The notes under the pieces are model-generated. The model had not been told where the DNA came from. It saw nothing but the letters and a program-made list of their open reading frames with translations, and made no database searches. From the NCBI GenBank assembly GCA_900321105.1, contig OOHL01000001.1, forward strand, positions 121,617 to 185,616: a DNA stretch of 64,000 nt, read 5' to 3'. The translations under genes and the position numbers were made by a program. Every line of letters begins with the position of its first letter. Positions within the stretch are counted from its first letter, which is position 1. The stretch comes from an uncultured Pseudomonadota bacterium (GTDB taxonomy: Bacteria; Pseudomonadota; Alphaproteobacteria; Rs-D84). Of this stretch, positions 1,424-60,701 are shown one piece after another.

Positions 1424-3412
1424 ATGCAAGTTTATGTGAATATCGAAAATAAAAGTTGGAAAAAATATAAAATTGATTTCGAAAAAATCGCAAATGCGGC
1501 GGTTTTGCCCGTGCACAAGAATTCAGAAGTTTCGATAACTTTGATCGATGATAAACAAATACATAAACTTAATAAACAATATCGTGGTATAGATAAGCCG
1601 ACAAATGTTTTATCTTTTGAACTGGGTGATGATGTTTTGTTGGGGGATATTTTTATATCGTTGGATACAGTTAAACGCGAAGCAAAGGCCGCGCATATTT
1701 CGGTCGAAGAACATACTGCGCATATGATTGTTCACGGCATGTTGCATTTGCAAGGATATGATCATATAAAAGACAAAGATGCAAAAATAATGGAATCTAA
1801 AGAAATAAAAATATTAGAGAAACTAGGATATAAAAACCCATATAAAGATGAAGAATGTGACATATCTTGTTGTCGTCATAATATCTTTTATAAATTACAG
1901 AATATAAAAATTCGCGAAAACAGTTTTGGGTGGTATTTTACCGCTGGCTTGTTGGGTATTATAACTTCATTTGGTTTTGCACCATTTAATTTATGGATGC
2001 TTTCGGTGTTTGGCATTGGATTTATGTATTATTTAGTAACACGGCAAAACAATCATATAAGTTTTTTGAAATCTTATTTGTTGGCATTTCCGTTTGGCGC
2101 TTTTTACGGAATCGCAATGTTTTGGTGGGTACTGAATTCGATATATGTGATGCCTGAACTAGCGGCTCAATTTGCAATATGGACAATTCCTGCATTGATA
2201 GGCATTGGTTTGTTGTGTGGTTTTATCTTGCCATTGCCGTTTGCGATTATTCGATATGTTCACAGAAATTCTGCACAAAGGGTAATTTTGTTTGCTGTGC
2301 TCTGGGTGCTTGTTTTATGGGGACGTGAATGGTTTTTAACAGGTTTTCCATGGAACCCAATTTCCAATATCACAATGAATATTCCAATGGTGGTTAATTC
2401 TATGTCATTGTGGGGTGCAATCGGATTAAGTTTTGTTATAATCGGTGTCATCGCATCATTTGTTGAATTATGCAGAAAAAACAGAATATCAAATTGGTTT
2501 GTTTTTGTTATGTACATTGTTTTGTTTTTAATTGGTTGTGCATTTGGTTATCACAATATGAGATTATCTGATAATATAATAAATAAATCCCCACTAATAA
2601 GAATTGTGCAGCCGGCACAATCTGCCGTATACAAGATTCCGTCTAGTAGGGAAGAAGCGCAAAATATTGCAAAGCAAAAGATACGCGATTTATTTGTTTG
2701 GGCTACAAATGATAAAGATGAAAATCCATCCATAATAGTGTTCCCAGAAACAGCATATCCATATACTGTTGTTGATAATGTATTTCCGTTGTCACGTATT
2801 TTAAACACAGATGTTATAATGGGTGCCAATTCATATAGTGATGGTAATACATATAATTCAATGGTTGTTGCAGATAAAAATGGAATAATTCAAAAATTAT
2901 ACAGTAAATCACATTTAGTGCCATTTGGTGAATATCGTCCGTTTGGTGATATTATCCCAACACCAGGCGAATTAACTGCTGGAAATGGCAAGGAATTGAT
3001 AAGTATCGGCGAATTTTCTTTTGCACCTGCAATTTGTTATGAAATTATATTTTCAGATTCTTTGGTGCCATATGGTACACATCCTGATGCGATTATCAAT
3101 ATAACAAACGACACATGGTTTGGGATGACGCCTGGTGTGTTCCAGCATCTTGATATGGTTCGCAGATATGCAATAGAATCTGGTTTGCCAATTATTCGTG
3201 CAAATTATTCGGGTATAAGCGCGTTTGTTGGGGCTGATGGGAATGTTATATCTATGATGCCAGTTGGCGAAACAGGAAGTTTAGACGGTTTTGTCTGGGG
3301 GGCACATAATACACCATACAGAATAATAGGACGAGATATGTGGATGGCGTTTATTTTGATGTTTTCAATATTTGCTTCAATATCCATATCCTTGTTTCAG
3401 AAGAAAGATTAG
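1424..3412 (+). CDS. ybeY/lnt: YbeY endoribonuclease domain (N-terminal ~150 aa) fused in one ORF to apolipoprotein N-acyltransferase Lnt
   Basis: HGMLHLQGYDH metal-binding motif of YbeY; then multi-TM region and carbon-nitrogen hydrolase domain (VFPETAYPY, ICYEIIF) typical of Lnt; a single uninterrupted 662-aa ORF. Confidence 0.7.
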   Translation: MQVYVNIENKSWKKYKIDFEKIANAAVLPVHKNSEVSITLIDDKQIHKLNKQYRGIDKPTNVLSFELGDDVLLGDIFISLDTVKREAKAAHISVEEHTAHMIVHGMLHLQGYDHIKDKDAKIMESKEIKILEKLGYKNPYKDEECDISCCRHNIFYKLQNIKIRENSFGWYFTAGLLGIITSFGFAPFNLWMLSVFGIGFMYYLVTRQNNHISFLKSYLLAFPFGAFYGIAMFWWVLNSIYVMPELAAQFAIWTIPALIGIGLLCGFILPLPFAIIRYVHRNSAQRVILFAVLWVLVLWGREWFLTGFPWNPISNITMNIPMVVNSMSLWGAIGLSFVIIGVIASFVELCRKNRISNWFVFVMYIVLFLIGCAFGYHNMRLSDNIINKSPLIRIVQPAQSAVYKIPSSREEAQNIAKQKIRDLFVWATNDKDENPSIIVFPETAYPYTVVDNVFPLSRILNTDVIMGANSYSDGNTYNSMVVADKNGIIQKLYSKSHLVPFGEYRPFGDIIPTPGELTAGNGKELISIGEFSFAPAICYEIIFSDSLVPYGTHPDAIINITNDTWFGMTPGVFQHLDMVRRYAIESGLPIIRANYSGISAFVGADGNVISMMPVGETGSLDGFVWGAHNTPYRIIGRDMWMAFILMFSIFASISISLFQKKD

Positions 3413-3563
3413 ATTCTGGATTGCGTGATTCATCAATACTTTTAATAATTGATGCAATTGATACATCGCGTGATAGGGCTATTTGTTGTAATACTTCAAA
3501 AAATTCTTGTTCAATAGATATACTGGTTTGATGTCCAGACAAAGATACAGATATTTTATGCAT
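3351..3563 (-). CDS. ribbon-helix-helix DNA-binding protein (COG4321-like)
   Basis: KISVSLSGHQTSISIEQEFFEVLQQIA resembles the conserved alphaproteobacterial RHH family; last gene of a tightly packed minus-strand cluster. Confidence 0.45.
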   Translation of the reverse strand: MHKISVSLSGHQTSISIEQEFFEVLQQIALSRDVSIASIIKSIDESRNPESNLSSETRIWILKQILKTSK

Positions 3564-3564
3564 T

Positions 3565-3999
3565 TTATATTTTCCCAACAATTAAACAATCCAACATTGC
3601 CCGATATGGATCATCGTATTTACGTAAAACGGATAATGTTAAATTATCCAACATAAAACAAGTTCCAGACGCATCAAAAGCGAACCAAAACAAATCGTTT
3701 CGTCCAAAAACAGTTTTTCCGAAAAGATTTTTATTGCCGACCATATCTTTGTTAATTTTTATTATAGATGGTAATGGATATTTTATGCCACGTTCAATTT
3801 CCAACGGCCCAAACACACATGCAGAGCCAATTGTTACACCAAAACATGTTGTATAAAAATCTTGTAAAAATGACGGAAACATTGCAGCGCGCATATCTTG
3901 CAAGTTGGTGTTTGCAATCTTTATCGCGGTTAATTCGCGGGCAGGGTAAATTTTTGCACCACGTGATTTTATCAAAGATAAAAATTCTGTTTTATTCAT
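3565..3999 (-). CDS. hypothetical protein; its start codon overlaps the stop of the upstream gene (ATGAATAA)
   Basis: ORF in track; start taken at MNKTEF; translational coupling with 3992..4498. Confidence 0.4.
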   Translation of the reverse strand: MNKTEFLSLIKSRGAKIYPARELTAIKIANTNLQDMRAAMFPSFLQDFYTTCFGVTIGSACVFGPLEIERGIKYPLPSIIKINKDMVGNKNLFGKTVFGRNDLFWFAFDASGTCFMLDNLTLSVLRKYDDPYRAMLDCLIVGKI

Positions 4000-4498
4000 T
4001 TCCGCGCCCCGCCATAAAATTAGATGCAATTTGACTTAATCTGTCGGATGTTGCGTTTCCGCCATCGCCGCCGCCGCCAGTATGGGATGTCACATATATC
4101 TTTTTTTCTGGGTTAGGCAAGAAAACAGTTGTGGCATCGCTTTGTTCAATTATAAATCTGTCCAGATTGTGCGCGTGTGGAAATGTCAAACACAGAAATA
4201 TATTTGATATATCTAAATCACCGCCCCAAATCAAAGGTATTCTGAATCTGATTGATAAATTATCAGGCAATGATTTCCCCATTACCAGATTTATAAAATC
4301 TTCCTGGGGTAAATTCATAAATGCAATTTCTTCAAAAGAATCAGTTAACGATTCTAAAAATTTGCGACGCAAAATAGAATACTTTTTAAACCAGTCAGGA
4401 TCCAATGAACATTTTTTTGGTTCGTATGCCATCACCGGCATATCGTCCATGCCTAACATTGAAAGCCTTTCCATTGCTGAATGTTCATTTAATTGCAT
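3992..4498 (-). CDS. hypothetical protein with a Gly-rich segment (HTGGGGDGGNATSD)
   Basis: 168-aa ORF, codon usage consistent with neighbours. Confidence 0.4.
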   Translation of the reverse strand: MQLNEHSAMERLSMLGMDDMPVMAYEPKKCSLDPDWFKKYSILRRKFLESLTDSFEEIAFMNLPQEDFINLVMGKSLPDNLSIRFRIPLIWGGDLDISNIFLCLTFPHAHNLDRFIIEQSDATTVFLPNPEKKIYVTSHTGGGGDGGNATSDRLSQIASNFMAGRGNE

Positions 4499-4513
4499 TT
4501 TATTTTTTGTCCT

Positions 4514-5398
4514 TTATAGGTTCTTTATATATTGAATAATTGTGTCGATATATTCAGAATATGAAGAGAAACTTTCTTTATCTGATTCATCAATTGCATC
4601 GGCAGGATGTTTGTTTATAAATTCTTTTAATTCATCAATTGATTTAAATATCAATAAAGATTCGTTCGTGCCGTATTTGTTCATTGTGTCCAGTATAAAT
4701 CCATTGATATGTATTGGTATATCATCCAATGTTTCTTTGAATACAGAATCCAGTTTTTGCAGTGCAGATATCATTTTATCTGGTTCGCAATCTACACCCC
4801 CAACCCAAACGATTTCATTATTACCAATTGCAAAAAGATTTGGGGTAAATCCAGATATTTTTGGATTTGGTTTTACAACATATCCTGCTGCGCTAAATGA
4901 ATCTGCAATTATCGAATTATAAGGATTTGTTTCGGGCGATTCTTTTTTTGTTATCTCAGTATGTGATGTATGTTGTTTTTCTGCGATTTGTGCCATGTTT
5001 TTTGGCAGATTTAAACGTGGTGGTCGCGCAACAGAAATAGCAGGTTCTGTTATTTTTATTTCCTCGTTTTCTTCAAGTGTTTTCGATGGAATTGATGTTG
5101 TCTGTTGCACAGTAACAGATTCTTTTTCTGGTTTCATTTTTTGGATTTTTATACGCCGGATTTCTTGTCGATATATCAGGTAAAGCCCAATCATAAAAAC
5201 AAATATCGCAATCGCAAAAGAAATATAAAAACCAGTGCTTATTGGGGTATGTGATGCCTGTAATTTAGATAATTCATTCCAATGTTCGTTGCAAAAAATA
5301 TTGAAATTAAAAATAGTATTTAACCAAAAGGATAACCCCAACAGCACAGTTAATCCCAAAAGGACGGATAATAAAATATCTTCAAGTTTATTTCTCAT
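4514..5398 (-). CDS. hypothetical membrane protein (2 N-terminal TM helices and a C-terminal soluble domain)
   Basis: hydrophobic N-terminus, 294 aa. Confidence 0.45.
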   Translation of the reverse strand: MRNKLEDILLSVLLGLTVLLGLSFWLNTIFNFNIFCNEHWNELSKLQASHTPISTGFYISFAIAIFVFMIGLYLIYRQEIRRIKIQKMKPEKESVTVQQTTSIPSKTLEENEEIKITEPAISVARPPRLNLPKNMAQIAEKQHTSHTEITKKESPETNPYNSIIADSFSAAGYVVKPNPKISGFTPNLFAIGNNEIVWVGGVDCEPDKMISALQKLDSVFKETLDDIPIHINGFILDTMNKYGTNESLLIFKSIDELKEFINKHPADAIDESDKESFSSYSEYIDTIIQYIKNL

Positions 5399-5422
5399 TT
5401 CGTTTTTATTATATCATATTTT

Positions 5423-6112
5423 GTGGTAAACTGGAATCAAATGATTGATATAAACGAAATTTTTTCTGATTCGGATAAAAGGATTGCCATTTGGTGCGAA
5501 CCTGTTGCGGACACCAATGATTTGGCGATAATGTGTGAAAATATAGTTAATAATAATGTGCATTTGATATCAGTTGCACCAGAAATGGTTTCAAATGTTT
5601 GGATGTATCTTGAAAAGAAAAAGATTAAAATATTAACACGATATAATTTTAACCCAGCACCAAAGAATCTGGATAAAGATATGTATGAATTGGCAGAAAA
5701 TATAACAAGTGTGTGTAAATCTGGGGCAGATGGTGTTCAAATATTCTTGCATATGCACGATTTTGAAAATTTTATAGATATGCTGAAAATCGTTAGGGAC
5801 GATTTATTCTTTGGTCATGATTTAGCCATAGCTTTGGATATCCAAGATATAGATATTTGTAATCTTGATTTCCTTTTTCAAAGATTAAGGGATATTCGTG
5901 CTAATATTTTAACTTTGACTTTAAATGAAGATATGGGGAATCGGTCTGACTTTGTTGGACGTGTTTATGGTTTGTTTCAAAATTGGGATTTTGATGGTGA
6001 ATTACATTTTGTGTTGGGAAATAATTTTGACAGAATAGACCAGGTTATTCGCTTGGCTGAAATTTTACGTCCAGAAATATCGGATAAAATAAAATTCTTT
6101 TTGGATTATTGA
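5423..6112 (+). CDS. hypothetical protein
   Basis: 229-aa ORF, no recognisable motifs. Confidence 0.4.
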   Translation: MVNWNQMIDINEIFSDSDKRIAIWCEPVADTNDLAIMCENIVNNNVHLISVAPEMVSNVWMYLEKKKIKILTRYNFNPAPKNLDKDMYELAENITSVCKSGADGVQIFLHMHDFENFIDMLKIVRDDLFFGHDLAIALDIQDIDICNLDFLFQRLRDIRANILTLTLNEDMGNRSDFVGRVYGLFQNWDFDGELHFVLGNNFDRIDQVIRLAEILRPEISDKIKFFLDY

Positions 6113-6777
6113 TTAAGTGACAACACCAGATATTTTGGATTTGTTGTGTTTGCTTTGTTTTTCAATTGATATCTTGTTTGTATGATTTTTAAGTCAGTCG
6201 ATATAACTTTCAGATTTGTTTGTTTTAATTGTTCTACAATCCAATCATAATATTCCCAATGGTCTGTACCGATTATAATTTTGCCACCATTTTGAATATG
6301 TGTTGATAAAATATTCAAAAAATCATGGCTTAAAAGTCTGCGCTTTTCATGTCTGGCTTTTGGCCAAGGATCTGGATGTAGAACCCAAATTTCATCGAAA
6401 TAAGTATTTTTTAAATCTTTCAGCAATAAACGAACATCGTCAGGCCAAACGCGAATATTTTTATATTCGTCCATTAAAATATTATCCGATTCGGTAGTAA
6501 TTGCTGAAAGCAGGGCGGCCACACCGTTTGCAAAAGGTTCTGCACCGATAATCATTTTATTTGGGTTGTTTATCGCCAAATCACGTAAATGTTCCCCGTT
6601 TCCGAATCCTATTTCTAAAATAAGCGGTTTTTCGCCAAAATCAGCGGTATTTGGTGCGATTTTGGGCAATAAGTTATCCATAAGCCACTGTTTTCGGTTT
6701 GATAATTTTTTACCGTGTCTGCGACCAAATGTTCGCAGATTTTGGTTTTCAAAATGTTTTAATTCTTGTTTTTCCAT
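6106..6777 (-). CDS. trmB: tRNA (guanine-N7)-methyltransferase
   Basis: LEIGFGNGEHL SAM-binding motif and HPDPWPKARH motif. Confidence 0.8.
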   Translation of the reverse strand: MEKQELKHFENQNLRTFGRRHGKKLSNRKQWLMDNLLPKIAPNTADFGEKPLILEIGFGNGEHLRDLAINNPNKMIIGAEPFANGVAALLSAITTESDNILMDEYKNIRVWPDDVRLLLKDLKNTYFDEIWVLHPDPWPKARHEKRRLLSHDFLNILSTHIQNGGKIIIGTDHWEYYDWIVEQLKQTNLKVISTDLKIIQTRYQLKNKANTTNPKYLVLSLNQ

Positions 6778-6823
6778 ATAATTAGTATAAAATCAGTTTG
6801 TTATAAAGACAAGGATAAATAAA

Positions 6824-8398
6824 ATGCGTAACGGATTATCAAAAGATTTAATAGCACGCGTATTGGGTGGTGCACCAAAATATACACTTGATGAACTGGA
6901 AACTAAATTCCCAGCAAGAAACTTGCCAGAAGGCGCAATGGTGACACGTTTTGCACCAAGTCCTACGGGTTATATGCATTTGGGTAATTTGTACAGTTTT
7001 TTAATTGATTACAAATTGGCACAACAATCTAATGGTATTTTCTTGTTGCGTATAGAAGATACAGATACAAAACGTGAAATTAAAGAAGCTGTTAATGTTG
7101 TTATAAAAGCATTATCGGATTTTGGCATTAAATATAATAATGATGAACAATATGGTCCATATTATCAATCACAACGTAAGGATATTTATCATTCTGTTGC
7201 TGCTTATTTACTTGAAAAAGGTTTGGCGTATCCTTGCTTTTTAACCCAAGAAGAAATGGATGATATTCGTGAAAAACAGGGTCTTGCGGGTATAGCAACT
7301 GGTATTTATGGTGAATTTGCACGTGATCGTGATATGAGTGAAGAAGACATAATCAAACATCTTGATAATGGCGAAACACCAACGATTCGTTTGTATTCAA
7401 TGGGTGATCCAAATAAAAGAATTTATTTTAAAGATTTTGTGCGCGGTTCTATATCTTTGCCAGAAAATAATGAAGATATTGTTTTAATAAAATCTACGGA
7501 CAGATTGCCAACATATCATTTTGCGCATTTGTGCGATGATCATTTTATGCGTATAACACATGTTGTGCGTGGTGAAGAATATTTTGGAACAGTTGCTTTG
7601 CATATTCAAATGTTTCGTATGATGGGTTGGCAATTACCAAATTATATCCATACGGCAACATTGGATAAAATCGATGAAGAAACTGGTAAACAAAGAAAAA
7701 TGTCTAAACGTAAAGATCCAGAAAATAATATTGCGTTTTTCTTACAAGAAGGTTGGCCAACAGAATCAGTTGTAGAATATTTGGGTAATATTTTGGCGCC
7801 TGGTTATGAAGAAGCAAAATTAAAAGGTCAGGTAAGATGTTTCTGGGATTATGAATTAAAACCAAAGAAAATACCTGGGTCTGGTTCTTTGTTTGATATG
7901 AAGAAACTGGAATGGTGGGCCAAGGAATATATTGCAACATTGCCTGTTTCTGAATTGGTAAAAAATGTTGTTGATTGGGCAAATGAATATGGAAACGAAG
8001 ACAATAAAAAACAAGTTGCAGATGTGCCATATTTAACATCTGTGTTGTCTATTGAACGTGACAATCCAAAACGTATTCGCAAAGATTTTATTACATGGCA
8101 ACAAACATTAAGCGAGGTTTCTTATTTCTGGGATTTCTTGTTCAATGCTAACAAAGAATATGAATATAACAAAGATGTTTTGCGCGAATTTTTGGCGACA
8201 TATAACGCAAATGACGATAAAGATTCTTGGTGGAATAAGATTGTCGCAGTCGCTGAAAAATGCGGTGTTAAACCAGGCGAAGTTGCAATGAATTTGCGTG
8301 TTGCGATGACAGGTCGTACAAACACACCTGATTTGTATTCGGTGATGCAAGTACTTGGCGGTGAACGTGTCAAAGAGAGAGTAAATATGATTTTATAA
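6824..8398 (+). CDS. gltX: glutamate--tRNA ligase (probably non-discriminating, since gatCAB is present)
   Basis: FAPSPTGYMHLGN HIGH motif; KMSKR KMSKS motif. Confidence 0.9.
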   Translation: MRNGLSKDLIARVLGGAPKYTLDELETKFPARNLPEGAMVTRFAPSPTGYMHLGNLYSFLIDYKLAQQSNGIFLLRIEDTDTKREIKEAVNVVIKALSDFGIKYNNDEQYGPYYQSQRKDIYHSVAAYLLEKGLAYPCFLTQEEMDDIREKQGLAGIATGIYGEFARDRDMSEEDIIKHLDNGETPTIRLYSMGDPNKRIYFKDFVRGSISLPENNEDIVLIKSTDRLPTYHFAHLCDDHFMRITHVVRGEEYFGTVALHIQMFRMMGWQLPNYIHTATLDKIDEETGKQRKMSKRKDPENNIAFFLQEGWPTESVVEYLGNILAPGYEEAKLKGQVRCFWDYELKPKKIPGSGSLFDMKKLEWWAKEYIATLPVSELVKNVVDWANEYGNEDNKKQVADVPYLTSVLSIERDNPKRIRKDFITWQQTLSEVSYFWDFLFNANKEYEYNKDVLREFLATYNANDDKDSWWNKIVAVAEKCGVKPGEVAMNLRVAMTGRTNTPDLYSVMQVLGGERVKERVNMIL

Positions 8399-21227: not shown

Positions 21228-23501
21228 TTAATTATGCAATGGTTCCAATACTTTTATTTCATTGGTGTTTGGATTCAAAACGCGTGGCACACCATCGTAT
21301 CCCATAATTGCATGATGCGATGGGATTAAAAATTCAGGTAATGGGGATGCTTCGCCCATCAAGACTTTTTCATGCAATTTCTTTTGAACAGGGGTTTTAT
21401 TAAGGAAATGGAATTCTTGGTCTGCTTCGATTGGACGATGATACCATCCTTGATAAATAACCAATTGTTTGCCTGGTTTTAATCTCATAATATCGTATTC
21501 GCTGTAAAGAGGTTCTTCTTTTGGTGTTTCGACTTCTTTGCCGTCTTTATCGGTTTCGACTTTCTTAGTCTTTTTCTGACCAATCATATCTGAAAATCTG
21601 CGTGCAGTATCCGGGTCGTTTTGACGCATAACAACTTTTGCCGCAGTTGTTGAAATAATTGTTGATGCGGCATCATTTCCATATTTTTCACTTATCTGGT
21701 GAATATCTTGACCGATGATTAAATAAGATACTTTTTGTCCGCGTCCCAAATCTGGTCCCTGAATAACAGCATCCAATTTTTGCATTTTTGGCATTTCATC
21801 CAAAACAAACAACACTGGACAAGGTCCCATTTTTACACCGTCAACAACCTGGTCCACATTGTGTGCCAATAAATAATTAGACATCAATTCAATGAATATC
21901 GCGGTTATTGGATTCAAAGCCTGGGCATCAACCATATTAATAGAAAGATATACCGTCACAGGTTTAATTTTTCCATCCCTTGGATCCATCATGCCACGCA
22001 TATCCTTGAAATGAAAATCAGAATGTGATGTTCTGTTTCTAACTGCAGCATTACGGAATATTGCCAGGCCTTCCATCATGGTGGAAAGAATTGATCCGCG
22101 TTCTTTATCAGGTGTATTTGCCAATTGCGTTAATTCAGAAACAGCACGATTTGCATACGCGTAACGGCGTGCTTCTTCAACCGCATCCAAAAGCAAATTT
22201 TTCATAGGATCTGCCATCATAACCATTTGATCGCCTTGCTTGCGACGTTCTTCCATTTCTTCGGCGATGGCAACCTGGGAAGATGTTAACCAATCAAGAA
22301 TCATGGAAAATGAAGCCTCGCGGCCACGCCATGAATCTGGGATGTGTGCCCATGTTCCAACATGGACATAATTGTTAATATTTAATTCGCCCTTATTCAA
22401 AATAGAATAGGCGGCATACGCGTTCGGATCGTTCATCATTGATAAATAATAGTCGCCCAACACAGCTGCATCGTCGCTGTTAAATGTCCCGTTGTTTATA
22501 CGTGCATAGAAATAGTCATCGGCGCGTGCGCGTTCAACCTTGGATACAATAAAGTTAATAAGTCCAGATAATCCGGCGCGACCAGTATTTGCCCAGTGCG
22601 GATCCGCAGTTGAAGATTTGCTGTCTGGGACCAAAACCTTGGCCATGGAATCGATATACAAATCACGTTGTTCTGGATTGTATGGAATATGGTCTGGCGA
22701 TAATGGATTCCAAGATGGATAATATATACCACGTGCTGGATCGTCCTGACCTGCCCAATTCATAATGAACACTGGTCCAATCGTTGAACGATAACCAGAT
22801 GTGTCTTGTTTTAATTCTGGTTTCGGGTCGTTAATAATCATTGAAACATTATCACAATCTAAAATTGTCGGTAAAACAACACCTTGGGTTTTACCGGTTC
22901 CTGGGGGTGCAACGCACAATGTTGATAACGCTTCATCCATCATAAGTGGTGTTTGTTTTCCTTTGTATTTGAAATAACCCAATACCATCATAAAACCATG
23001 GAAAAGACCTTCCTTGTTTTTGGGGTCTTGACCCATTTTTACGATATCTTCGGCGGTTGCCTTGCGCGCAGATTTTTCATCGTATTTATCTTTGCTGTGT
23101 GGATTGAATTCAGATTTAAATGTGGAATCGGCCAAGAAGTAATATCCCAAAATCGGTAATAATGGTGTAATTGATGCAAAATCTGGATGGTTTAATGTGC
23201 GAATTATCCAATAAGGAACTTCTGCAATTGCGGAAAGCCCAAACGTCATAAACAAATTTTTTATATAAATCAGTGTCCAATGTTCACTGGCCGGACCCCA
23301 TCCATATCGCCATATATGTTCAACCGCAAAAGACATACCAAACATTAATGCGCATATCAACCAAATACCAACATCCCAACGCAATTCCCAGAATTTGCGC
23401 GCCATTGGTGTTTGTTCGTGTTCCTTGTATGCGCTGGATTCAAAAATTTTTAATCCTTTGCCGGAACCACTGGATGATAAAATGTTGAACTTTATTGCCA
23501 T
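21228..23501 (-). CDS. virD4: type IV secretion coupling protein (VirD4/TraG family) with an N-terminal membrane extension
   Basis: Walker A VAPPGTGKTQGVVLPTIL; Walker B VLFVLDEMPKMQKL; N-terminal TM helices. Confidence 0.75.
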   Translation of the reverse strand: MAIKFNILSSSGSGKGLKIFESSAYKEHEQTPMARKFWELRWDVGIWLICALMFGMSFAVEHIWRYGWGPASEHWTLIYIKNLFMTFGLSAIAEVPYWIIRTLNHPDFASITPLLPILGYYFLADSTFKSEFNPHSKDKYDEKSARKATAEDIVKMGQDPKNKEGLFHGFMMVLGYFKYKGKQTPLMMDEALSTLCVAPPGTGKTQGVVLPTILDCDNVSMIINDPKPELKQDTSGYRSTIGPVFIMNWAGQDDPARGIYYPSWNPLSPDHIPYNPEQRDLYIDSMAKVLVPDSKSSTADPHWANTGRAGLSGLINFIVSKVERARADDYFYARINNGTFNSDDAAVLGDYYLSMMNDPNAYAAYSILNKGELNINNYVHVGTWAHIPDSWRGREASFSMILDWLTSSQVAIAEEMEERRKQGDQMVMMADPMKNLLLDAVEEARRYAYANRAVSELTQLANTPDKERGSILSTMMEGLAIFRNAAVRNRTSHSDFHFKDMRGMMDPRDGKIKPVTVYLSINMVDAQALNPITAIFIELMSNYLLAHNVDQVVDGVKMGPCPVLFVLDEMPKMQKLDAVIQGPDLGRGQKVSYLIIGQDIHQISEKYGNDAASTIISTTAAKVVMRQNDPDTARRFSDMIGQKKTKKVETDKDGKEVETPKEEPLYSEYDIMRLKPGKQLVIYQGWYHRPIEADQEFHFLNKTPVQKKLHEKVLMGEASPLPEFLIPSHHAIMGYDGVPRVLNPNTNEIKVLEPLHN

Positions 23502-39605: not shown

Positions 39606-40181
39606 TTACTGATTTAATGTTCCCCATGCGGCTTTATGTCCGCCGTCACGTGTCAGAATTATTTTAGCATTGTTTAATTGTGCCGCTGTTAAACCACGAA
39701 CAATATAAGATTGTTGCAGGCGACCAACGCGATCTATTTTTAATTTAGGTAATTCAATTGCCATTGCTTCTGTATCACAGCAAATACTGTTTTCGTTGCA
39801 TGTTTGGCATTGATAAACCTGGGCTGTATAAACTTTTCCTGGTCGAAGATGTTCCAAATCTACCTTCATTTTTAATCCGTTATCTGTTTCTTTGAATTTG
39901 ATTGTGCCCATCGCAGATTCACCGCCTTTGGCATTGTTTGTGTACATGTTTGCACTTACATTATTTATGTCAGATGCATCGTATGTTTGATAAAAGACTA
40001 CAGTTTCACTTGCTTGTACAAATTCGTCTTGTGATTGTGGTTTATGCGGACCATCTTTGTGTTGTCTTTTATATTGGTGTTCGTGATGGTCGTATTTATG
40101 TGTTGGGCACATTGTGCAGCCTGCGGTTAATATAGATATTGCACAAAGCGATGTTAATAAAATAGCGGTTTTTGATTTCAT
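39606..40181 (-). CDS. Cu/Zn-superoxide-dismutase-like lipoprotein, apparently lacking the metal-ligand histidines
   Basis: lipobox LTAGC; MGTIKFKETDNGLKMKVDLEHLRPGK resembles the SodC Greek-key N-terminus; no HxH or HFNP motifs. Confidence 0.4.
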   Translation of the reverse strand: MKSKTAILLTSLCAISILTAGCTMCPTHKYDHHEHQYKRQHKDGPHKPQSQDEFVQASETVVFYQTYDASDINNVSANMYTNNAKGGESAMGTIKFKETDNGLKMKVDLEHLRPGKVYTAQVYQCQTCNENSICCDTEAMAIELPKLKIDRVGRLQQSYIVRGLTAAQLNNAKIILTRDGGHKAAWGTLNQ

Positions 40182-40343: not shown

Positions 40344-40419
40344 GGATGCATAGCTCAGTTGGTAGAGCAACTGACTCTTAATCAGTGGGTCCAGGGTTCG
40401 AGTCCCTGTGCGTCCACCA
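40344..40419 (+). tRNA. tRNA-Lys (anticodon CUU), with encoded CCA
   Basis: cloverleaf with 7-bp acceptor stem (one G-U pair); anticodon loop CUCUUAA; T-loop GGTTCGAGTCC. Confidence 0.9.
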
Positions 40420-40428
40420 AAATAAACA

Positions 40429-40452
40429 AACCACCAACGGTGGTTTTTTTAT
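40429..40452 (+). terminator. rho-independent terminator after tRNA-Lys
   Basis: aaccacc-aac-ggtggtt hairpin followed by a T-run. Confidence 0.5.
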
Positions 40453-40562
40453 TTTGTCGCACAAGCGGACGAGAATCCCTTTGTTCGACTATGAGTAAGC
40501 GAAAACGAGCGCAGAGAAGTTTGAGCGCTAACGAATGCGGCGCAGGCATTTTATGCCGAGCC

Positions 40563-40578
40563 AGTCCCTGTGTGTCCA
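40563..40578 (+). repeat. direct repeat of the tRNA-Lys 3' end (15/16 nt), att-like
   Basis: agtccctgtgtgtcca versus tRNA agtccctgtgcgtcca at 40401..40416. Confidence 0.55.
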
Positions 40579-40697
40579 GATTTTTTATTGTTGTAGAAAA
40601 TTTTTGTAACTTATTGATATTAACATTTTTTTTTGCGCTTGTATGGTCCCATCGTATATGACATAATATAAAAGAAAGTAATACCAAGGAGAATGAT

Positions 40698-41849
40698 ATG
40701 AAAAAACTTACAATATTAACATCAGTTTTAGCATTAGCTGCGTGCGGTGGTGGTTCTGGTGGTGGCGCTGGCGTTGCACCAATGGCAAATGTAACACCTA
40801 TGAATTTAGGATCACAGTATTCAAGGATTGCATGTAATTCAGATAGAAGCGAATGCAGAGGTGTGACAGTAGATTCAAATGGTAACACAACATTGTCTGA
40901 AGCAAGATTCGCCTCTAAAAGACTATCCAGAGCAGCATCAACACATGGTAATATTGCGGTTGGAAACGAACAATGGGATTTATTCTATGCAGATGATATT
41001 GATATGAATGTTATTTATTCTCCAGGGGAAGATAAAGTCGCGACACAAACATTTATTCTTGATTCCAAAGGAAATATAACAGGATTAAAATGGTCTGGGG
41101 ATGAAGAAGTTGCAGAGTTTGTACCAGGAGTTGTGTTATCTGGTATGAAATATATCGGTGATAATAAATTTAGTTTAAAATCTTCTGAATCAGACGGTAC
41201 ACTTGATTTTGAAAACTATGGTGATTTAAATTTTGCTAATTTTGGTGTTGTAAAAATACAAAATATGAAATGGACTGGTCACGATGTTGGCGAGGGTAAT
41301 ATGGATATACCTTTTGCTGGTGGATATAATGTTTTAAAACAAAACCCAACTGAAAATTTGGCGGATCAAACCATTACATATACAGGAACAGCGCGAGGTA
41401 TGGTTGAATATGCTGGTACAAAGACAAGTGATGCAGCACAAGATTATTTGAACATAACCGCAAATAATGCAACATTAACTTTGGATACAACTGGTGCAAA
41501 TGTAGTAGAAACTTTTGCTGGTAATTTTGTAAAAACAGAAAATCCATCTAAACACTGGTACACGATAACAGCAATAAACGATAATGGTGCTATAAATTAC
41601 GTATTTACTGGTAATAATGAAACAGAAAGCGATAGATTTGATATTGCGGGTACAAATCATACTGTTCAAATGTTTAAGACAGGGTATTACAGTGATAAAA
41701 AAGATACTGCGTCAGAAGCATCCGGTTTGTTCCAATATCAGGAAATTATAGACCCTGCATTAAAAGAACATCCAGGGGATGAATCACCTATGATACAAGA
41801 AAACAATAAAACCATATATTTTGGATTTGGTGGAAAGGTGACAGAATAA
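40698..41849 (+). CDS. surface-lipoprotein (SLP)-like lipoprotein 1
   Basis: signal peptide MKKLTILTSVLALAACGGGSGGG, a Neisseria/Pasteurellaceae-style SLP lipobox with a Gly/Ser linker; paralog of 41956..43125. Confidence 0.45.
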   Translation: MKKLTILTSVLALAACGGGSGGGAGVAPMANVTPMNLGSQYSRIACNSDRSECRGVTVDSNGNTTLSEARFASKRLSRAASTHGNIAVGNEQWDLFYADDIDMNVIYSPGEDKVATQTFILDSKGNITGLKWSGDEEVAEFVPGVVLSGMKYIGDNKFSLKSSESDGTLDFENYGDLNFANFGVVKIQNMKWTGHDVGEGNMDIPFAGGYNVLKQNPTENLADQTITYTGTARGMVEYAGTKTSDAAQDYLNITANNATLTLDTTGANVVETFAGNFVKTENPSKHWYTITAINDNGAINYVFTGNNETESDRFDIAGTNHTVQMFKTGYYSDKKDTASEASGLFQYQEIIDPALKEHPGDESPMIQENNKTIYFGFGGKVTE

Positions 41850-41867
41850 TCGTAAAACTTACAACAC

Positions 41868-41899
41868 GGATCCCCTGTCACAACAGGGGATTTTTTTTA
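41868..41899 (+). terminator. rho-independent terminator between the two SLP-like genes
   Basis: gatcccctg-tcacaa-caggggat hairpin followed by a T-run. Confidence 0.5.
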
Positions 41900-41955
41900 T
41901 GGTAATGTTCCTAGTATTGTACTAGGATATATTTATCGAAAGAAAAGGGGGCGTT

Positions 41956-43125
41956 ATGAAAAAACTTATAATATTAACATCTGTATTGGCATTGGCTGCA
42001 TGTGGCGGCGGTTCCGGTGGTCCAGACGAAAGATTTGTAGTAAGATCATCTTCCCCATACGCATATGTAACACAAAGCGCAGCAGAATCGAACAAAGATA
42101 TCACGTCAATTGCATCTGAAGTTCGCAAATGTGTTGATGATAATTGCGCAAAGAATACACACAATGGCAATGGTACGAATTTGCCAACGGTGACACCACG
42201 TATAAGCTCATACAGTGATAATACAGGTAATTGGAATGTGTACAATTTGTCAGATGTTAAATTTAACATGGCAGACGAGGGGTTGGAACCAGGCGACGAA
42301 AGTTTTAATTTTGTTGTCGATGACAAAGAAGGCAGTGCAACACGTGGCAAAATCATTGGTATTGATATGGGATTGCGAGATTCAGAAACACATCCACAAC
42401 ATGGTAATACAAATGTCAAGGCGGATTTTGTGCGTAACGATGATAACAGTTTTTCTGGGTATGTAAAACACAATGGTGAACATGCTGATGCAAATGGATG
42501 GACATATGTGGAAAAGGCGAATTTTGAATCATTGGGCAAAGGTTTGACTAATAAACTTACATATTCTGATTTTGGGCAATTGGATTTAAGTGAAGCGAAA
42601 GAATACTGGAAACCTGTATTTATTGGCGGTTATGATGTGAAGAAAATATCCCCAGCGGATGTTAATGTTAAAAAAACATCAAAAGATGACGTGTTTTCTG
42701 GAAAGGTAGTTGGTTATGTTGCGTCAAATGATGGACATGGTAATGTTGAAACTTTCGCATTAGAATCTAACAACGCAACATTGACTTTTGATAAAGACAA
42801 TAACAAAACAACAACATTGAATGCAAGTTTTACAGACTGGTACAATATGGTGTACACAGAAAATGACACAACAAAATCTGTTGTATTGTCTGGGTATAAT
42901 GGTGACCATCAGATGTTAACAACACCAGAAGATGGTAAAGTGACGATTGAAAATACCGGGATATTATCAGATATACGATATTTTGGTGATAATAATGTTC
43001 CAATTGAATCTGTCGGTTTAATTCAAATTCGTGATTGTGGAGGAACCGAATGTCCAGAACACTTTGACAGCGAGGAAGTTCGTGTTGATGTTGGTTTTGG
43101 TGTCAGCAGAAAGATTACTGATTGA
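41956..43125 (+). CDS. surface-lipoprotein (SLP)-like lipoprotein 2
   Basis: signal peptide MKKLIILTSVLALAACGGGSGG; its stop overlaps the downstream Slam-like gene start. Confidence 0.45.
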   Translation: MKKLIILTSVLALAACGGGSGGPDERFVVRSSSPYAYVTQSAAESNKDITSIASEVRKCVDDNCAKNTHNGNGTNLPTVTPRISSYSDNTGNWNVYNLSDVKFNMADEGLEPGDESFNFVVDDKEGSATRGKIIGIDMGLRDSETHPQHGNTNVKADFVRNDDNSFSGYVKHNGEHADANGWTYVEKANFESLGKGLTNKLTYSDFGQLDLSEAKEYWKPVFIGGYDVKKISPADVNVKKTSKDDVFSGKVVGYVASNDGHGNVETFALESNNATLTFDKDNNKTTTLNASFTDWYNMVYTENDTTKSVVLSGYNGDHQMLTTPEDGKVTIENTGILSDIRYFGDNNVPIESVGLIQIRDCGGTECPEHFDSEEVRVDVGFGVSRKITD

Positions 43126-44477
43126 AAAAAATATTACTGATTTTATGCGTTGTGATTTCGCCTATGTTTTCATTGGCTGAACCTGATGTGAAACAAAATG
43201 GCAAAACAACAGAAATCACAATGTCTGCGCTGGATGCTGTAAAGCTGGCTGGCAATTTAATAGACAAGGGTGATTACGAGCATGCAAGTCAAATTCTTAC
43301 CATGATGCCAAAGACAGACAGTTTGCCTGTGGAAATAGAAAGATGGTTTCTTTTGGCACAAATGGAACAAAGAAAAGGTAATTACGAAGAAGCCATTAAA
43401 ATTTATCGTAAAATTCTTGATGATCAACCAGATTTGGCACGTATTCGTTTTGAATTGGCATTATGTTATATGAAAATGGGTCGTTGGTATCGTGCCGATT
43501 ATCATTTGCGTCTTGCCATGGCTGGAAAAGATTTACCAGATAATGTCAAACAAATGATGGCGTATTATCGTTATATTGTTCGTCAAAATAAACGTTGGAA
43601 TGTTTGGTTTAATTTTGGTGCGGCACCTGATTCTAATATAAACAATGGTAATGGTGGTGAAGAGTGTGTCGTAAATGGTTGGGGACGTTTTTGTCGTAAT
43701 CTTAAAGAACCAGAATCTGTGGTTGGTGCAAATTTAACATTGGGTGGAAATTACGAATTTGTATTATCTGATCATTGGCGTTGGAAAAGTGATGCAAACA
43801 TTTATTCCAATACTTATAACAACCACGATTATGATGATTTGTATTTGTCTTCATCAACCGGACCTCGATATATTTGGTCACGGGGGGACGTTTGGTTGGC
43901 GGCGATAGGCGCACGTCGTTGGTATGGTTGGGAAAAGTATAATTATTCATATGGTGCAAAACTGGACACGAATTATGACTTTACACGTAAATTGTCAGGT
44001 GGACTGACTTTGCGTTATATGGAAAATAAATATGATGAATATGGACCATTTTTAAATGGGCAAACATATTCAACAAGTTTCAGTTTGTATTATTCATTTA
44101 ACGCACGTTTGTATACGGTATTAAGAACTGGTTTGATACGTGAAGATACTGTTGTTCCAACTTATTCATATTGGCAGCCAAATTTTGCCATAGGATTGGG
44201 GATAGAATTGCCTGCTGGATTTCATGTATATGCAGAACCTTCGTTCTATATGTCTAAATATGATGATGCACAATGGGTTGTAAAAGATTTTGATTACACC
44301 CAAATCACAGAACGCGATTTTGTTCAAAGATATGCATTGTCTGTTTCTAATAATAAATTTGATGTGTGGGGTTTTGTGCCAACGTTTACAATCTCTTATA
44401 TGCGCCGCGATTCAAATATCTGGCAAAGGGAATTTGATAAAACAACACTTGAATTTACAATGCGGCAAAGATTTTAA
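43122..44477 (+). CDS. Slam-like (DUF560) outer-membrane protein: N-terminal TPR domain plus C-terminal beta-barrel
   Basis: signal peptide; TPR-like GNYEEAIKIYRKILDDQPDLARIRFELALCYMKMGRW; Trp/Tyr-rich barrel ending EFTMRQRF; lies immediately downstream of the two SLP-like genes. Confidence 0.45.
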   Translation: MKKILLILCVVISPMFSLAEPDVKQNGKTTEITMSALDAVKLAGNLIDKGDYEHASQILTMMPKTDSLPVEIERWFLLAQMEQRKGNYEEAIKIYRKILDDQPDLARIRFELALCYMKMGRWYRADYHLRLAMAGKDLPDNVKQMMAYYRYIVRQNKRWNVWFNFGAAPDSNINNGNGGEECVVNGWGRFCRNLKEPESVVGANLTLGGNYEFVLSDHWRWKSDANIYSNTYNNHDYDDLYLSSSTGPRYIWSRGDVWLAAIGARRWYGWEKYNYSYGAKLDTNYDFTRKLSGGLTLRYMENKYDEYGPFLNGQTYSTSFSLYYSFNARLYTVLRTGLIREDTVVPTYSYWQPNFAIGLGIELPAGFHVYAEPSFYMSKYDDAQWVVKDFDYTQITERDFVQRYALSVSNNKFDVWGFVPTFTISYMRRDSNIWQREFDKTTLEFTMRQRF

Positions 44478-59066: not shown

Positions 59067-59102
59067 TAAAAACCTTGGGACAAAATGGGACGGGGGACAA
59101 AT

Positions 59103-60701
59103 ATGAAAATTCGTTTTAATATCTGTTTAATAGGTTTGATGGTGGCATTGACAGGTTGCACACTGAAAGAATCTGCCAAGGTTTCTGAAAGTGTTGATAA
59201 TAATTTTGTTAATGCATACGAAGCCTTTGAAATGGCAAAAAATCCACGCGCCAAGGTTGCCAGTGGTGATACTGTTTCCATGTCCGAAGGTGTGTGGCTT
59301 GGAAATAAATCAACATTGTTAGAACACAAAAATAATTTGCCTTCTAAATTTGAAACAGATACAGGAATCACGATTTTATTAAATGAACCTGTCACATTAC
59401 AAGTATTGGCAAATGACATCAATTCAATCACGGGTATCCCTGTGAAAATTGACAGCCAGGTTGATGCCGAAAAATTAAGAAAGACAGTTGATGTTGCATA
59501 TACCGGAAAATTATCTGGATTGTTATCTCAAATCGCAACAGATTTAGATTTGCTTTGGTATTATGACAAAGATTCAATAGTTTTCTATGAAACGGAAACA
59601 CGCACATATACATTGTATGCATTGGGAACAGATGTGTCGTATCAATCATCTGTTCAAACAGATTCTGGAAACCAAGTATCTTTGGAATCTACATTGAAAG
59701 AATGGGATGAAGTAGAAGCAACCATAAATTCCATTATAAATAATTCCAAGAATGCACAATTTACCGTATCTCGCAGTTTGGGAACAATTACTGTGACGGC
59801 GACACCATCGATTTTGAATCGTGTTGGTGAATATATCGCAAAACAAAACAAACGTCTTTCACAATTGGTGACAATTGATGTAAAGGTTTTGCAAGTATCT
59901 TTATCTAATGAATCGGCGTTTGGTTTGAATTTGGCGGCGGCGATAAATTCTGCATCTGGATTGAACATCGTTGCGAATCCAAAGAATAATTTGGCATCAA
60001 CCGAAGCATCATCTATGAATGTTGCTGTGTTGTCAAATACTGTTGCGGATTCGGTGACTGGTTTAACAGGAACATATACCGAAGATCAAATTCGTAATGG
60101 TTCGTTATCGCGTATGGCGGGATCCAGTGCCTTGATAGAAGCCTTGGCAAAGCAGGGCAAGGTATCATTGGTCACAAACGTTGGTGTGACAACACGTAAT
60201 AACCGCGTTGCGCCTGTGACAAATACAAAATCAACCGGATATATTAAACGTTTTGAATCAAGAACATTTACAACCGTTGAATCCAGTACCGTTGACCAAG
60301 ACGATTTGGAAACAGGATTTTCAATGCAATTATTACCAAATGTTTTGGAAAATGGAAAAATATTGCTGTTGTTCAAAATGTCAGTTCGCGAATTGTTAAA
60401 GATGTCAACCCAAACAATTGGTGCGGTCACACTGCAATTACCAGAAGTTGAAGAACGTTCGTTTATGCAAGAAGTTATCATGGAATCTGGTCAAATGTTG
60501 GTTGTATCTGGATTTGAAAAACAAAAGAACGATGATACACGTTATGGTTTGGGTGATGCGGACTTTATGGCGTTGTCTGGTTCGCGTGAAACGGCGGCAT
60601 CGCGTGAAGTTTTGGTTGTTATCTTGACACCTCAGGTTTTGGTCAGCCCGATGGATGCAGAACGCAGCATTCAACAACATTGGGGTGCACCAATGAATTA
60701 A
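59103..60701 (+). CDS. lipoprotein secretin (TcpC/BfpB/PilN-like)
   Basis: lipobox ALTGC; C-terminal secretin signature VTNVGVTT...GLGDADFMALSGSRETAASREVLVVILTPQV. Confidence 0.6.
   Translation: MKIRFNICLIGLMVALTGCTLKESAKVSESVDNNFVNAYEAFEMAKNPRAKVASGDTVSMSEGVWLGNKSTLLEHKNNLPSKFETDTGITILLNEPVTLQVLANDINSITGIPVKIDSQVDAEKLRKTVDVAYTGKLSGLLSQIATDLDLLWYYDKDSIVFYETETRTYTLYALGTDVSYQSSVQTDSGNQVSLESTLKEWDEVEATINSIINNSKNAQFTVSRSLGTITVTATPSILNRVGEYIAKQNKRLSQLVTIDVKVLQVSLSNESAFGLNLAAAINSASGLNIVANPKNNLASTEASSMNVAVLSNTVADSVTGLTGTYTEDQIRNGSLSRMAGSSALIEALAKQGKVSLVTNVGVTTRNNRVAPVTNTKSTGYIKRFESRTFTTVESSTVDQDDLETGFSMQLLPNVLENGKILLLFKMSVRELLKMSTQTIGAVTLQLPEVEERSFMQEVIMESGQMLVVSGFEKQKNDDTRYGLGDADFMALSGSRETAASREVLVVILTPQVLVSPMDAERSIQQHWGAPMN

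Follow-up and report, generated by a model that had tools for sequence, protein, structure and literature searches.

A probable Slam-type surface-lipoprotein export module and a tRNA-linked structured element in the reduced genome of Candidatus Enterousia

The DNA analysed here is a 64,000-nt stretch of contig OOHL01000001.1 (hereafter the window) from the genome of Candidatus Enterousia, an uncultured gut alphaproteobacterium of the order Rs-D84. Members of this order are uncultured gut bacteria with genomes below 1 Mb that lack respiration and standard nutrient transporters and whose way of life is unknown, and Enterousia itself is described as fermentative, with genomes of ~0.75-1.0 Mb and without the standard transporters (PMC12306168). 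In the part of the window under study, a tRNA-Lys(CUU) gene is followed by a short structured element, by two genes for predicted surface lipoproteins (SLP1 and SLP2) and by a gene for an outer-membrane protein of the Slam family. An initial annotation of this DNA had described the tRNA-Lys gene, a 16-nt repeat, two lipoprotein genes and an overlapping 451-aa gene, all of which were found at the places it gave. I consider it likely that Candidatus Enterousia uses this region as a functional module for the export of surface lipoproteins, with a slot content that is exchanged among relatives. Related loci are labelled L with a number; those with a Slam (L008-L087) were obtained by scanning one genome per species with the window Slam protein. 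The features of the region are as follows.

40344..40419, + strand: tRNA-Lys(CUU) gene with encoded CCA (ARAGORN; Rfam tRNA, 73.3 bits)
40428..40446, + strand: intrinsic terminator hairpin of tRNA-Lys, then a T-run (terminator scan, 8 pairs)
40456..40579, + strand: degenerate copy of the tRNA-linked structured element (nhmmer, 134 bits; alignment with the L010, L018 and L061 copies; family-wide covariation)
40563..40578, + strand: imperfect 16-nt copy of the tRNA-Lys 3' end that makes up the element's 3' arm (1-mismatch pattern search)
40620..40647, + strand: promoter-like site TTAACA-16-TATGGT upstream of SLP1 (consensus scan, 9/12; weak, such sites being no commoner than in shuffles)
40686-40691, + strand: Shine-Dalgarno sequence AAGGAG ahead of SLP1 (read from the sequence)
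40698..41849, + strand: SLP1, 383-aa lipoprotein with a TbpB-lobe-like handle and 8-strand barrel, predicted Slam cargo
41868..41893, + strand: terminator-like hairpin between SLP1 and SLP2 (stem of 11 pairs and a T-run)
41956..43125, + strand: SLP2, 389-aa lipoprotein with a handle and 8-strand barrel, predicted Slam cargo
43122..44477, + strand: Slam / type 11 secretion outer-membrane protein, 451 aa, with signal peptide, TPR domain, DUF560 barrel and C-terminal Phe

By its sequence profile, the 451-aa protein is a Slam, or type 11 secretion system (T11SS) outer-membrane protein. The match to SlipAM/DUF560 (PF04575) was strong (E=2.7e-32, 112.9 bits against a cutoff of 22) and aligned residues 159-442 with positions 1-279 of the 288-position profile, and TPR_Slam (PF24575) was barely above its cutoff (35.5 against 35.2 bits), with TPR_19, TPR_2, TPR_11, TPR_8 and TPR_14 also exceeding theirs at residues 73-134. 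The Slam call of the initial annotation, made on an N-terminal TPR region and a C-terminal barrel ending in Phe, thus passes both Pfam gathering thresholds. The N-terminus (MKKILLILCVVISPMFSLA/EPD) was read as a signal peptide from an alignment to homologues rather than with a predictor, and its position is kept in 11 of them; the C-terminus reads ...MRQRF, with Phe as the last residue. Public gene callers start the gene at ATG 43164, 14 codons after TTG 43122, which yields a 437-aa protein and loses the conserved signal peptide. The TTG start was preferred because the longer N-terminus is the part conserved in the 11 homologues. This start overlaps the stop codon of SLP2 within the sequence TTGA, so SLP2 and Slam are probably co-translated, while SLP1 is probably on its own transcript owing to the terminator at 41868-41893 that comes after it. 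A sequence search of the PDB with the Slam returned TPR proteins only among the best 60 matches listed.

SLP1 and SLP2 both begin with MKKLxILTSVLALAACGGGSGG, that is, with a lipobox (L-A-A-C) that is followed by a Gly/Ser linker, and the lipobox Cys is invariant across the family alignments (73 and 69 members). A Gly/Ser linker after the lipidated Cys is typical of neisserial SLPs. The full-length proteins are 26% identical (E=2e-13), much of which comes from the identical signal peptide, and the mature parts show 23% identity over ~220 C-terminal residues (E=9e-5). Reciprocal database matches and a common profile place both in one family, which upholds their earlier description as paralogous, although the similarity is distant and in part due to that signal peptide. 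Neither protein has a sequence match in Pfam, NCBIfam or the PDB, and the relatives collected for them (73 and 98 matches) are nearly all unnamed metagenome proteins, none with a Pfam domain.

Structure prediction gave the same architecture for both lipoproteins: a disordered linker leads to a handle rich in beta structure, and eight long strands make up the C-terminal part. SLP2 was modelled with a pLDDT (predicted local distance difference test) of 87.1 and a pTM (predicted template modelling score) of 0.84, and SLP1 with a pLDDT of 76.9, its C-terminal half being mostly near or above 90. In a Foldseek search against the PDB, Neisseria TbpB ranked first (E=1e-5), and the eight best matches of the models were all Slam or T11SS cargo. 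The top matches align 170-190 residues as opposed to ~110 for a bare barrel, so handle and barrel together match one lobe of TbpB. On the evidence of these models, the proposal that the locus encodes two surface lipoproteins of the cargo type holds up, and both features on which it had been staked, a DUF560 match in the exporter and an 8-strand barrel in the lipoproteins, are present. The SLP family is thus of the same fold class as the TbpB-like SLPs but forms a separate sequence family that current domain models do not cover.

Scanning for the window Slam yielded 80 loci at 44-85% identity in ~74 assemblies, nearly all of them metagenome-assembled genomes (MAGs) titled Candidatus Enterousia or uncultured Alphaproteobacteria and obtained from rumen, gut or faeces; several of these MAGs hold two or three Slam loci. 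A Slam fragment of 68% identity on a 3.5-kb contig of a 'Clostridia bacterium' MAG (L073, JAZSRL010000005.1) is probably a binning error. Genes of the SLP family lie directly upstream on the same strand in 58 of the 69 Slam loci with enough upstream sequence, as one (43 loci), two (13) or three (2) copies, and directly downstream in 2 more. The module had been thought unusual for this kind of genome. For this lineage it is not unusual, and its kind is not new: most Slams of Candidatus Enterousia come with SLP genes, and Slams are known from all classes of Proteobacteria (PMC5449769).

The position of the module is shared as well. The order TatC-NlpD-(191-aa lipoprotein, Lpp191)-tRNA-Lys(CUU)-[SLPs]-Slam-TatD-ThiF-outer-membrane protein (OMP)-autotransporter-like barrel, with the bracketed genes variable, recurs in L010, L018, L057, L058, L061 and L071. 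A variant in L037 and L067 keeps TatC-NlpD-tRNA-Lys-SLP-Slam and has OMP and Lpp191 downstream, with no TatD or ThiF, and the downstream half of the order is also found in L038, L054, L066 and L070. This arrangement is common to ~12 species, with TatC identities to the window of 59-87% and a Slam in the slot of every one. The tRNA-Lys(CUU) gene stands at the same position in L010, L018, L037, L058, L061, L067 and L071, and the slot holds no SLP gene (L018, with the Slam retained), one or two.

The content of the slot did not follow its flanks. Relative to the window, L010, L061 and L071 have equally close flanking genes (TatC 82, 86 and 87%; ThiF 76, 78 and 78%; OMP 83, 81 and 85% identity), but their Slams are 80% identical in L010 and only 61-62% in L061 and L071. 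By neighbour-joining, the Slams of the window and L010 group with those of other loci (L008, L009, L011), and most Slams of the tRNA-Lys locus fall into a different clade. Sliding identity of the Slam genes of L008-L087 to that of the window resolved two clear Slam types, with L018 being a mosaic along its length, and the single SLP of L010 was undetectable by BLAST with SLP1 or SLP2. The closest relatives of SLP1 (80%) and of the Slam (82%) lie in L011, a related Enterousia MAG, within a 6-kb segment (2212-8342) that has tRNA-Pro(cgg) on one side and on the other a 52-nt repeat, 96% identical to the 3' half of this tRNA gene. No integrase was detected in the bracketed segment, which also carries tRNA-Pro(ggg) and two unknown ORFs (open reading frames). 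Further tRNA-adjacent modules are those of L014, L015, L036 and L040 (tRNA-Thr), of L041 and L056 (tRNA-Ser gct) and of the tRNA-Lys loci. I read this as a slot that is shared across the lineage and whose content congeners swap by recombination; now and then a module also takes up an island-like position at a tRNA gene. The SLP number of 0-2, the SLP turnover that outpaces that of the flanks, and the presence of at least two Slam types are characteristic of a locus for surface antigens or ligand-binding proteins on which diversifying selection acts.

The export pathway proposed for the module is modelled on the systems of Neisseria and Pasteurella, from Sec export and acylation to Lol delivery and passage through the Slam (PMC5449769, PMC9090332). 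SLP1 and SLP2 would be made with a lipoprotein signal peptide, exported by Sec and acylated at Cys16. The Lol pathway would carry them to the outer membrane; YbeY and apolipoprotein N-acyltransferase (Lnt) domains occur in one unbroken ORF of the same window (1424-3412), and a LolA gene lies upstream. The adjacent Slam, with a periplasmic TPR domain and the DUF560 barrel, would then move the SLPs to the cell surface and would recognise their C-terminal 8-strand barrel, as has been shown for TbpB, fHbp and HpuA in Neisseria.

Slam1 and Slam2 of Neisseria meningitidis, with TbpB, LbpB, fHbp and HpuA as their lipoproteins (Hooda et al. 2016/2017; PMC5449769; PMC9090332), are the closest known parallel. 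There, as here, the exporter joins a TPR domain at its N-terminus to a DUF560 barrel in the outer membrane, and its gene neighbours those of lipoproteins in which a lipobox and a Gly-rich linker precede a handle and, at the C-terminus, an 8-strand barrel (modelled in the present case). Neisseria Slam cargo are also the best structural matches of the window SLPs. Unlike these, the window SLPs are single-lobe proteins of ~385 aa whose sequences show no detectable resemblance to TbpB or fHbp, and their host is a fermentative, reduced-genome gut alphaproteobacterium instead of a mucosal pathogen (PMC12306168). A single-lobe, Slam-dependent SLP is known from Pasteurella multocida (PmSlam/PmSLP, or fIbp; PMC5449769; PDB 9b3e, 9b3h). 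The window SLPs match PmSLP less well in structure than they match the TbpB C-lobe, and they differ from it in that two divergent SLP genes stand in tandem and that the family is much expanded across the lineage. Type 11 secretion in the wider sense includes NilB/NilC and the hemophilin HphA/HrpC with its T11SS protein (PMC8406197; PMC9100927; doi 10.1101/2024.09.26.615229); unlike the soluble cargo of such systems, the window cargo is predicted to be lipidated.

A number of points weigh against a working export module. The assignment of SLP1 and SLP2 to the SLPs comes from predicted fold and gene neighbourhood in a family without a Pfam match: a profile comparison with the TbpB and fHbp families, which the initial annotation had suggested, gave no match for SLP1, SLP2 or any of the 73 family members to TbpB_B_D or Lipoprot_C even at E<=1, where Pfam as a whole returned scattered noise only, and the family profile found no solved SLP among PDB sequences, only signal peptides. 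The Slam barrel is assigned from a sequence profile rather than a structural model, the Slam tree is a neighbour-joining tree without support values, and 9 of the 69 Slam loci have no adjacent SLP family member. Conversely, some SLP family members lie away from any Slam (the SLP1-like P0004 in L001-L003, and P0019 in L005-L007): one of them has as neighbours HU and two unknown proteins (438/451 and 586 aa) that match nothing in Pfam, and another adjoins a phage-type lysozyme gene. None of the eight window ORFs of >=520 aa encodes a TonB-dependent receptor (shorter ORFs outside the flanks were not scanned), which sets the window apart from Neisseria and means that the bipartite receptor model of that genus is not directly transferable. 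Surface exposure, dependence on this Slam and ligand binding by the SLPs are predicted by analogy.

These points could be taken to mean that the lipoproteins are ordinary outer-membrane lipoproteins that face the periplasm and carry a lipocalin- or YceI-like barrel, and that the DUF560 protein exports other cargo or acts on a non-protein substrate. Such a reading would fit the lack of sequence matches to known cargo and the family members found apart from a Slam, and DUF560 proteins with soluble cargo are known (PMC8406197). I regard it as improbable, given that the structural matches extend over the handle as well as the barrel and are Slam/T11SS cargo throughout the best eight, that SLP and Slam genes adjoin in the same orientation in 58 of 69 loci, with overlapping stop and start in the window, and that the lipid-anchored Cys is followed by a Gly/Ser linker as in neisserial SLPs. 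What the analysis shows is the membership of the Slam family by sequence, the modelled fold of both lipoproteins, the conserved adjacency, the synteny and the incongruence of the cassette.

The 16-nt repeat belongs to a different subject. The sequence AGTCCCTGTGTGTCCA at 40563-40578 repeats the tRNA-Lys 3' end (40401-40416) with one mismatch; it lies 143 nt after tRNA-Lys and upstream of all three genes. Allowing up to 3 mismatches, 3 matches to the tRNA end were observed versus 0.19 in dinucleotide shuffles, and none of 100 shuffles reached 3. Aligning the regions downstream of tRNA-Lys revealed a conserved element of ~120-140 nt in the window, L010, L018 and L061 that is absent in L037, L058, L067 and L071, and the repeat is the 3' end of the window copy (~125 nt, 40456-40579). 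In this copy the 5' arm is complementary to the 3' end of the tRNA; the conserved body (TTCGACTATGAGTAAG..CTAACGAATGC..GCAG-hairpin-CGAGCCA) and the 3' copy of the tRNA end follow. The copy is degenerate, with a C-to-T change and with CCA and a second terminator lost. In L010 (8391-8529), L018 (9793-9912) and L061 (8262-8401), the last 19 nt of the element reproduce the tRNA end perfectly, CCA included, and a second terminator comes next.

A metagenome scan combined with nhmmer brought the number of copies to ~50 (among others in L120, L135, L103, L191, L201, L187, L125, L140, L143, L181 and L116), placed directly after many kinds of tRNA in Enterousia-like genomes; the pattern scan gave many chance matches from unrelated environments, and only those confirmed by nhmmer were used. 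The neighbouring tRNAs represent at least 14 anticodons (for Lys, Val, Tyr, Gly, Gln, Pro, Ser, Arg, His and Asn). Most copies match, at their 3' end, 19-21 of the 22 nt with which the adjacent tRNA ends, from T-loop position 58/59 onwards, and the body is conserved whatever the tRNA. Helix P1/P2 is 99% paired (22-37% in slid controls) and shows 27 double-change cells versus 7.4 +/- 2.4 in shuffles, none of 500 of which was as high. In P3, 112 of 114 cells are paired, by five covarying combinations, and P4 forms a hairpin in every copy although its sequence is free to vary. Pairing of a 5' arm is stronger with the 3' arm of the same copy than with those of other copies (-12.8 versus -9.3 kcal/mol, p=8e-6), and L135 shows joint changes of tRNA, 3' copy and 5' arm. 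Since G-U pairs are near-invariant, the element was read as an RNA from the tRNA strand.

The layout that I propose starts with an imperfect complement of the tRNA end at the 5' side, continues with a small hairpin, a P1-P2 arm and a P3-P4 arm, and ends at the 3' side in the last 18-19 nt of the element's own tRNA, from position 58/59 to CCA, and in its own terminator; closing stem, body arms and a free NCCA tail would form a cloverleaf-like four-way junction. The chances are about even that this is an apparently undescribed family of structured, probably RNA-level elements of ~130-180 nt that colonise the 3' flank of many kinds of tRNA gene in Alphaproteobacteria of gut and rumen that resemble Enterousia. 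Such an element could be a small RNA that mimics tRNA, a new kind of non-autonomous mobile element that finds its next target by copying the local tRNA end, or both. Rfam 15 at E<=1 returned only tRNA and sub-threshold noise for the window copy and the intact L010 copy, and a full-text literature search on such tRNA-flanking elements returned nothing relevant.

Other identities were tried and set aside. ARAGORN found no tmRNA at the element; GGTTCGAC and ATGCCGAG may resemble tmRNA motifs. A hammerhead-like reading of CUAUGAG...CGAA lacks the core G and has no Rfam match. For a phage origin, one IMG/VR scan was empty and the other gave two matches (L211 and L212), of which the one examined, L211, is a chance match in coding sequence. 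As to a longer autonomous parent element, only ordinary genes lie downstream of the tRNA-His copies.

Variants and nested repeats were also seen. A second, more divergent subfamily, with the body GGTTCGACA(A/C)(C/G)(A/T)AGTAG/CAGATTT(T/G)GC..., occurs in L041 (6340-6512), L050 (18-290), L054 (16-159) and L039 (11608-11704), and in L041 and L054 it separates the tRNA from an SLP-Slam module. In tRNA-His-linked elements a different short repeat family (GAATACGAGAATACACAATTAGAAAAATC...TTTTTATTATTG) has inserted precisely where the tRNA-end copy would be expected to begin; it is present in L093 (6470-6545), L161, L114, L169, L080 and L177, and in L011 (8390-8480) beside the 52-nt repeat. In L198 and L108 a small palindrome (CCCCGCAAAATTT..AAATTTTGTGGG) that looks like a miniature inverted-repeat insertion is nested in the P2 arm.

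Two explanations based on integration have to be weighed for this repeat. The initial annotation had read the three genes as a horizontally acquired islet, and one could suppose a recent, site-specific insertion into the tRNA-Lys 3' end with the 16-nt repeat as the attachment-site scar. The repeat is real, and a partial direct repeat of a tRNA 3' end beside the tRNA gene is what tRNA-targeted genomic islands show, whose integrase sites are in the anticodon loop or T-loop of tRNA genes. In L011 a classic-looking 52-nt repeat helps to bracket the 6 kb with the nearest SLP1-Slam relatives. A tRNA gene is found no more than 600 bp upstream of the SLP-Slam module in 13 of 65 cases, where ~2.4 would be expected, the window Slam type is incongruent with its flanks, and a preprint reports that cluster 1 T11SS proteins co-occur with mobile genetic islands (doi 10.1101/2024.09.26.615229). 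Unlike in such islands, however, the repeat pair of the window encloses only 143 nt of non-coding structured sequence. The repeat does not bracket the genes because it lies upstream of them, and no further copy was found downstream of the Slam, in the window or in other tRNA-Lys loci. It forms part of an element family associated with many different tRNA genes, most of which have no SLP-Slam genes within the stretch examined, and the 13 tRNA-adjacent modules reduce to 3-4 independent loci. No recombinase or integrase was found by Pfam among the main ORFs from 38.1 to 48 kb (NlpD-like, TatD, ThiF, OMP and autotransporter-like barrel). The comparison with the flanks that had been suggested showed no departure from the window: the GC content of the module is 0.356-0.377 against a window mean of 0.364 with a flat profile, and GC, GC3 (GC at third codon positions) and codon usage of the three genes are inside the window range, their codon-usage divergence ranking 8th, 18th and 21st of 29. 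Nor was an empty site at tRNA-Lys seen, with a Slam in 12 of 12 syntenic species, which is weak evidence as the loci were retrieved by Slam similarity and genomes with an empty site could not appear. As an account of a recent event the islet is thus largely refuted, and I consider it very unlikely; the 16-nt repeat is unconnected with the insertion of the SLP-Slam module. What survives of the proposed mobility is the exchange of cassettes among relatives, as seen from the tree incongruence, the L018 mosaic and the one tRNA-Pro-bracketed segment in L011, and not a fresh tRNA-Lys islet.

The other explanation concerns the ~125-nt segment itself, which might be the decaying scar of an integrase-mediated insertion (attL, remnant and attR) in place of a functional element. 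At integrase T-loop sites in tRNA genes the repeat runs from the T-loop to CCA, as it does here; the element is present or missing (L037, L058, L067, L071) at orthologous tRNA-Lys loci, occurs in tandem in L116 and L050, and is degenerate in the window. A scar of this kind is hard to reconcile with the same conserved body after at least 14 different kinds of tRNA, with covariation in four helices (P1/P2, P3 and P4) and with near-invariant G-U pairs that point to one strand. The preference of the 5' arm for its own 3' arm and the joint changes of L135 also speak against it, and neither an integrase nor a longer parent element was seen. I consider such a scar rather unlikely. The element is not part of the SLP-Slam module; it stands between tRNA and SLP-Slam cassette at several loci (tRNA-Lys, tRNA-Ser(gct)) and may supply homology for cassette exchange.

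Other genes of the window were noted in passing. The 191-aa lipoprotein between NlpD and tRNA-Lys (39606-40181, - strand) is rich in Cys and His, has a faint Cu,Zn-superoxide-dismutase-like match (E=8.6e-4) and is conserved among syntenic loci (56-61% identity). Positions 21228-23501 encode a type IV secretion coupling protein of the VirD4/TraG type, and 59085-60701 a secretin-family protein.

New here are the unmodelled SLP sequence family and the cassette-exchange locus in a reduced genome; the Slam-SLP module itself is known in kind and would alone be of modest interest, which the tRNA-linked element raises. If confirmed as an RNA, the element would be a new class of tRNA-mimicking RNA or a new mode of targeting by mobile elements, and it cautions against reading partial tRNA repeats as island boundaries. 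The SLP family extends the Slam/T11SS cargo class to sequences that current domain models miss, so surveys based on TbpB_B_D undercount cargo. For the organism, genomes below 1 Mb still keep Slam exporters, each usually with 1-3 fast-evolving lipoproteins of the TbpB fold. This retention suggests that surface lipoproteins are a principal point of contact with host or partner microbes, and makes the SLPs concrete candidates for ligand-binding or antigenically variable proteins.

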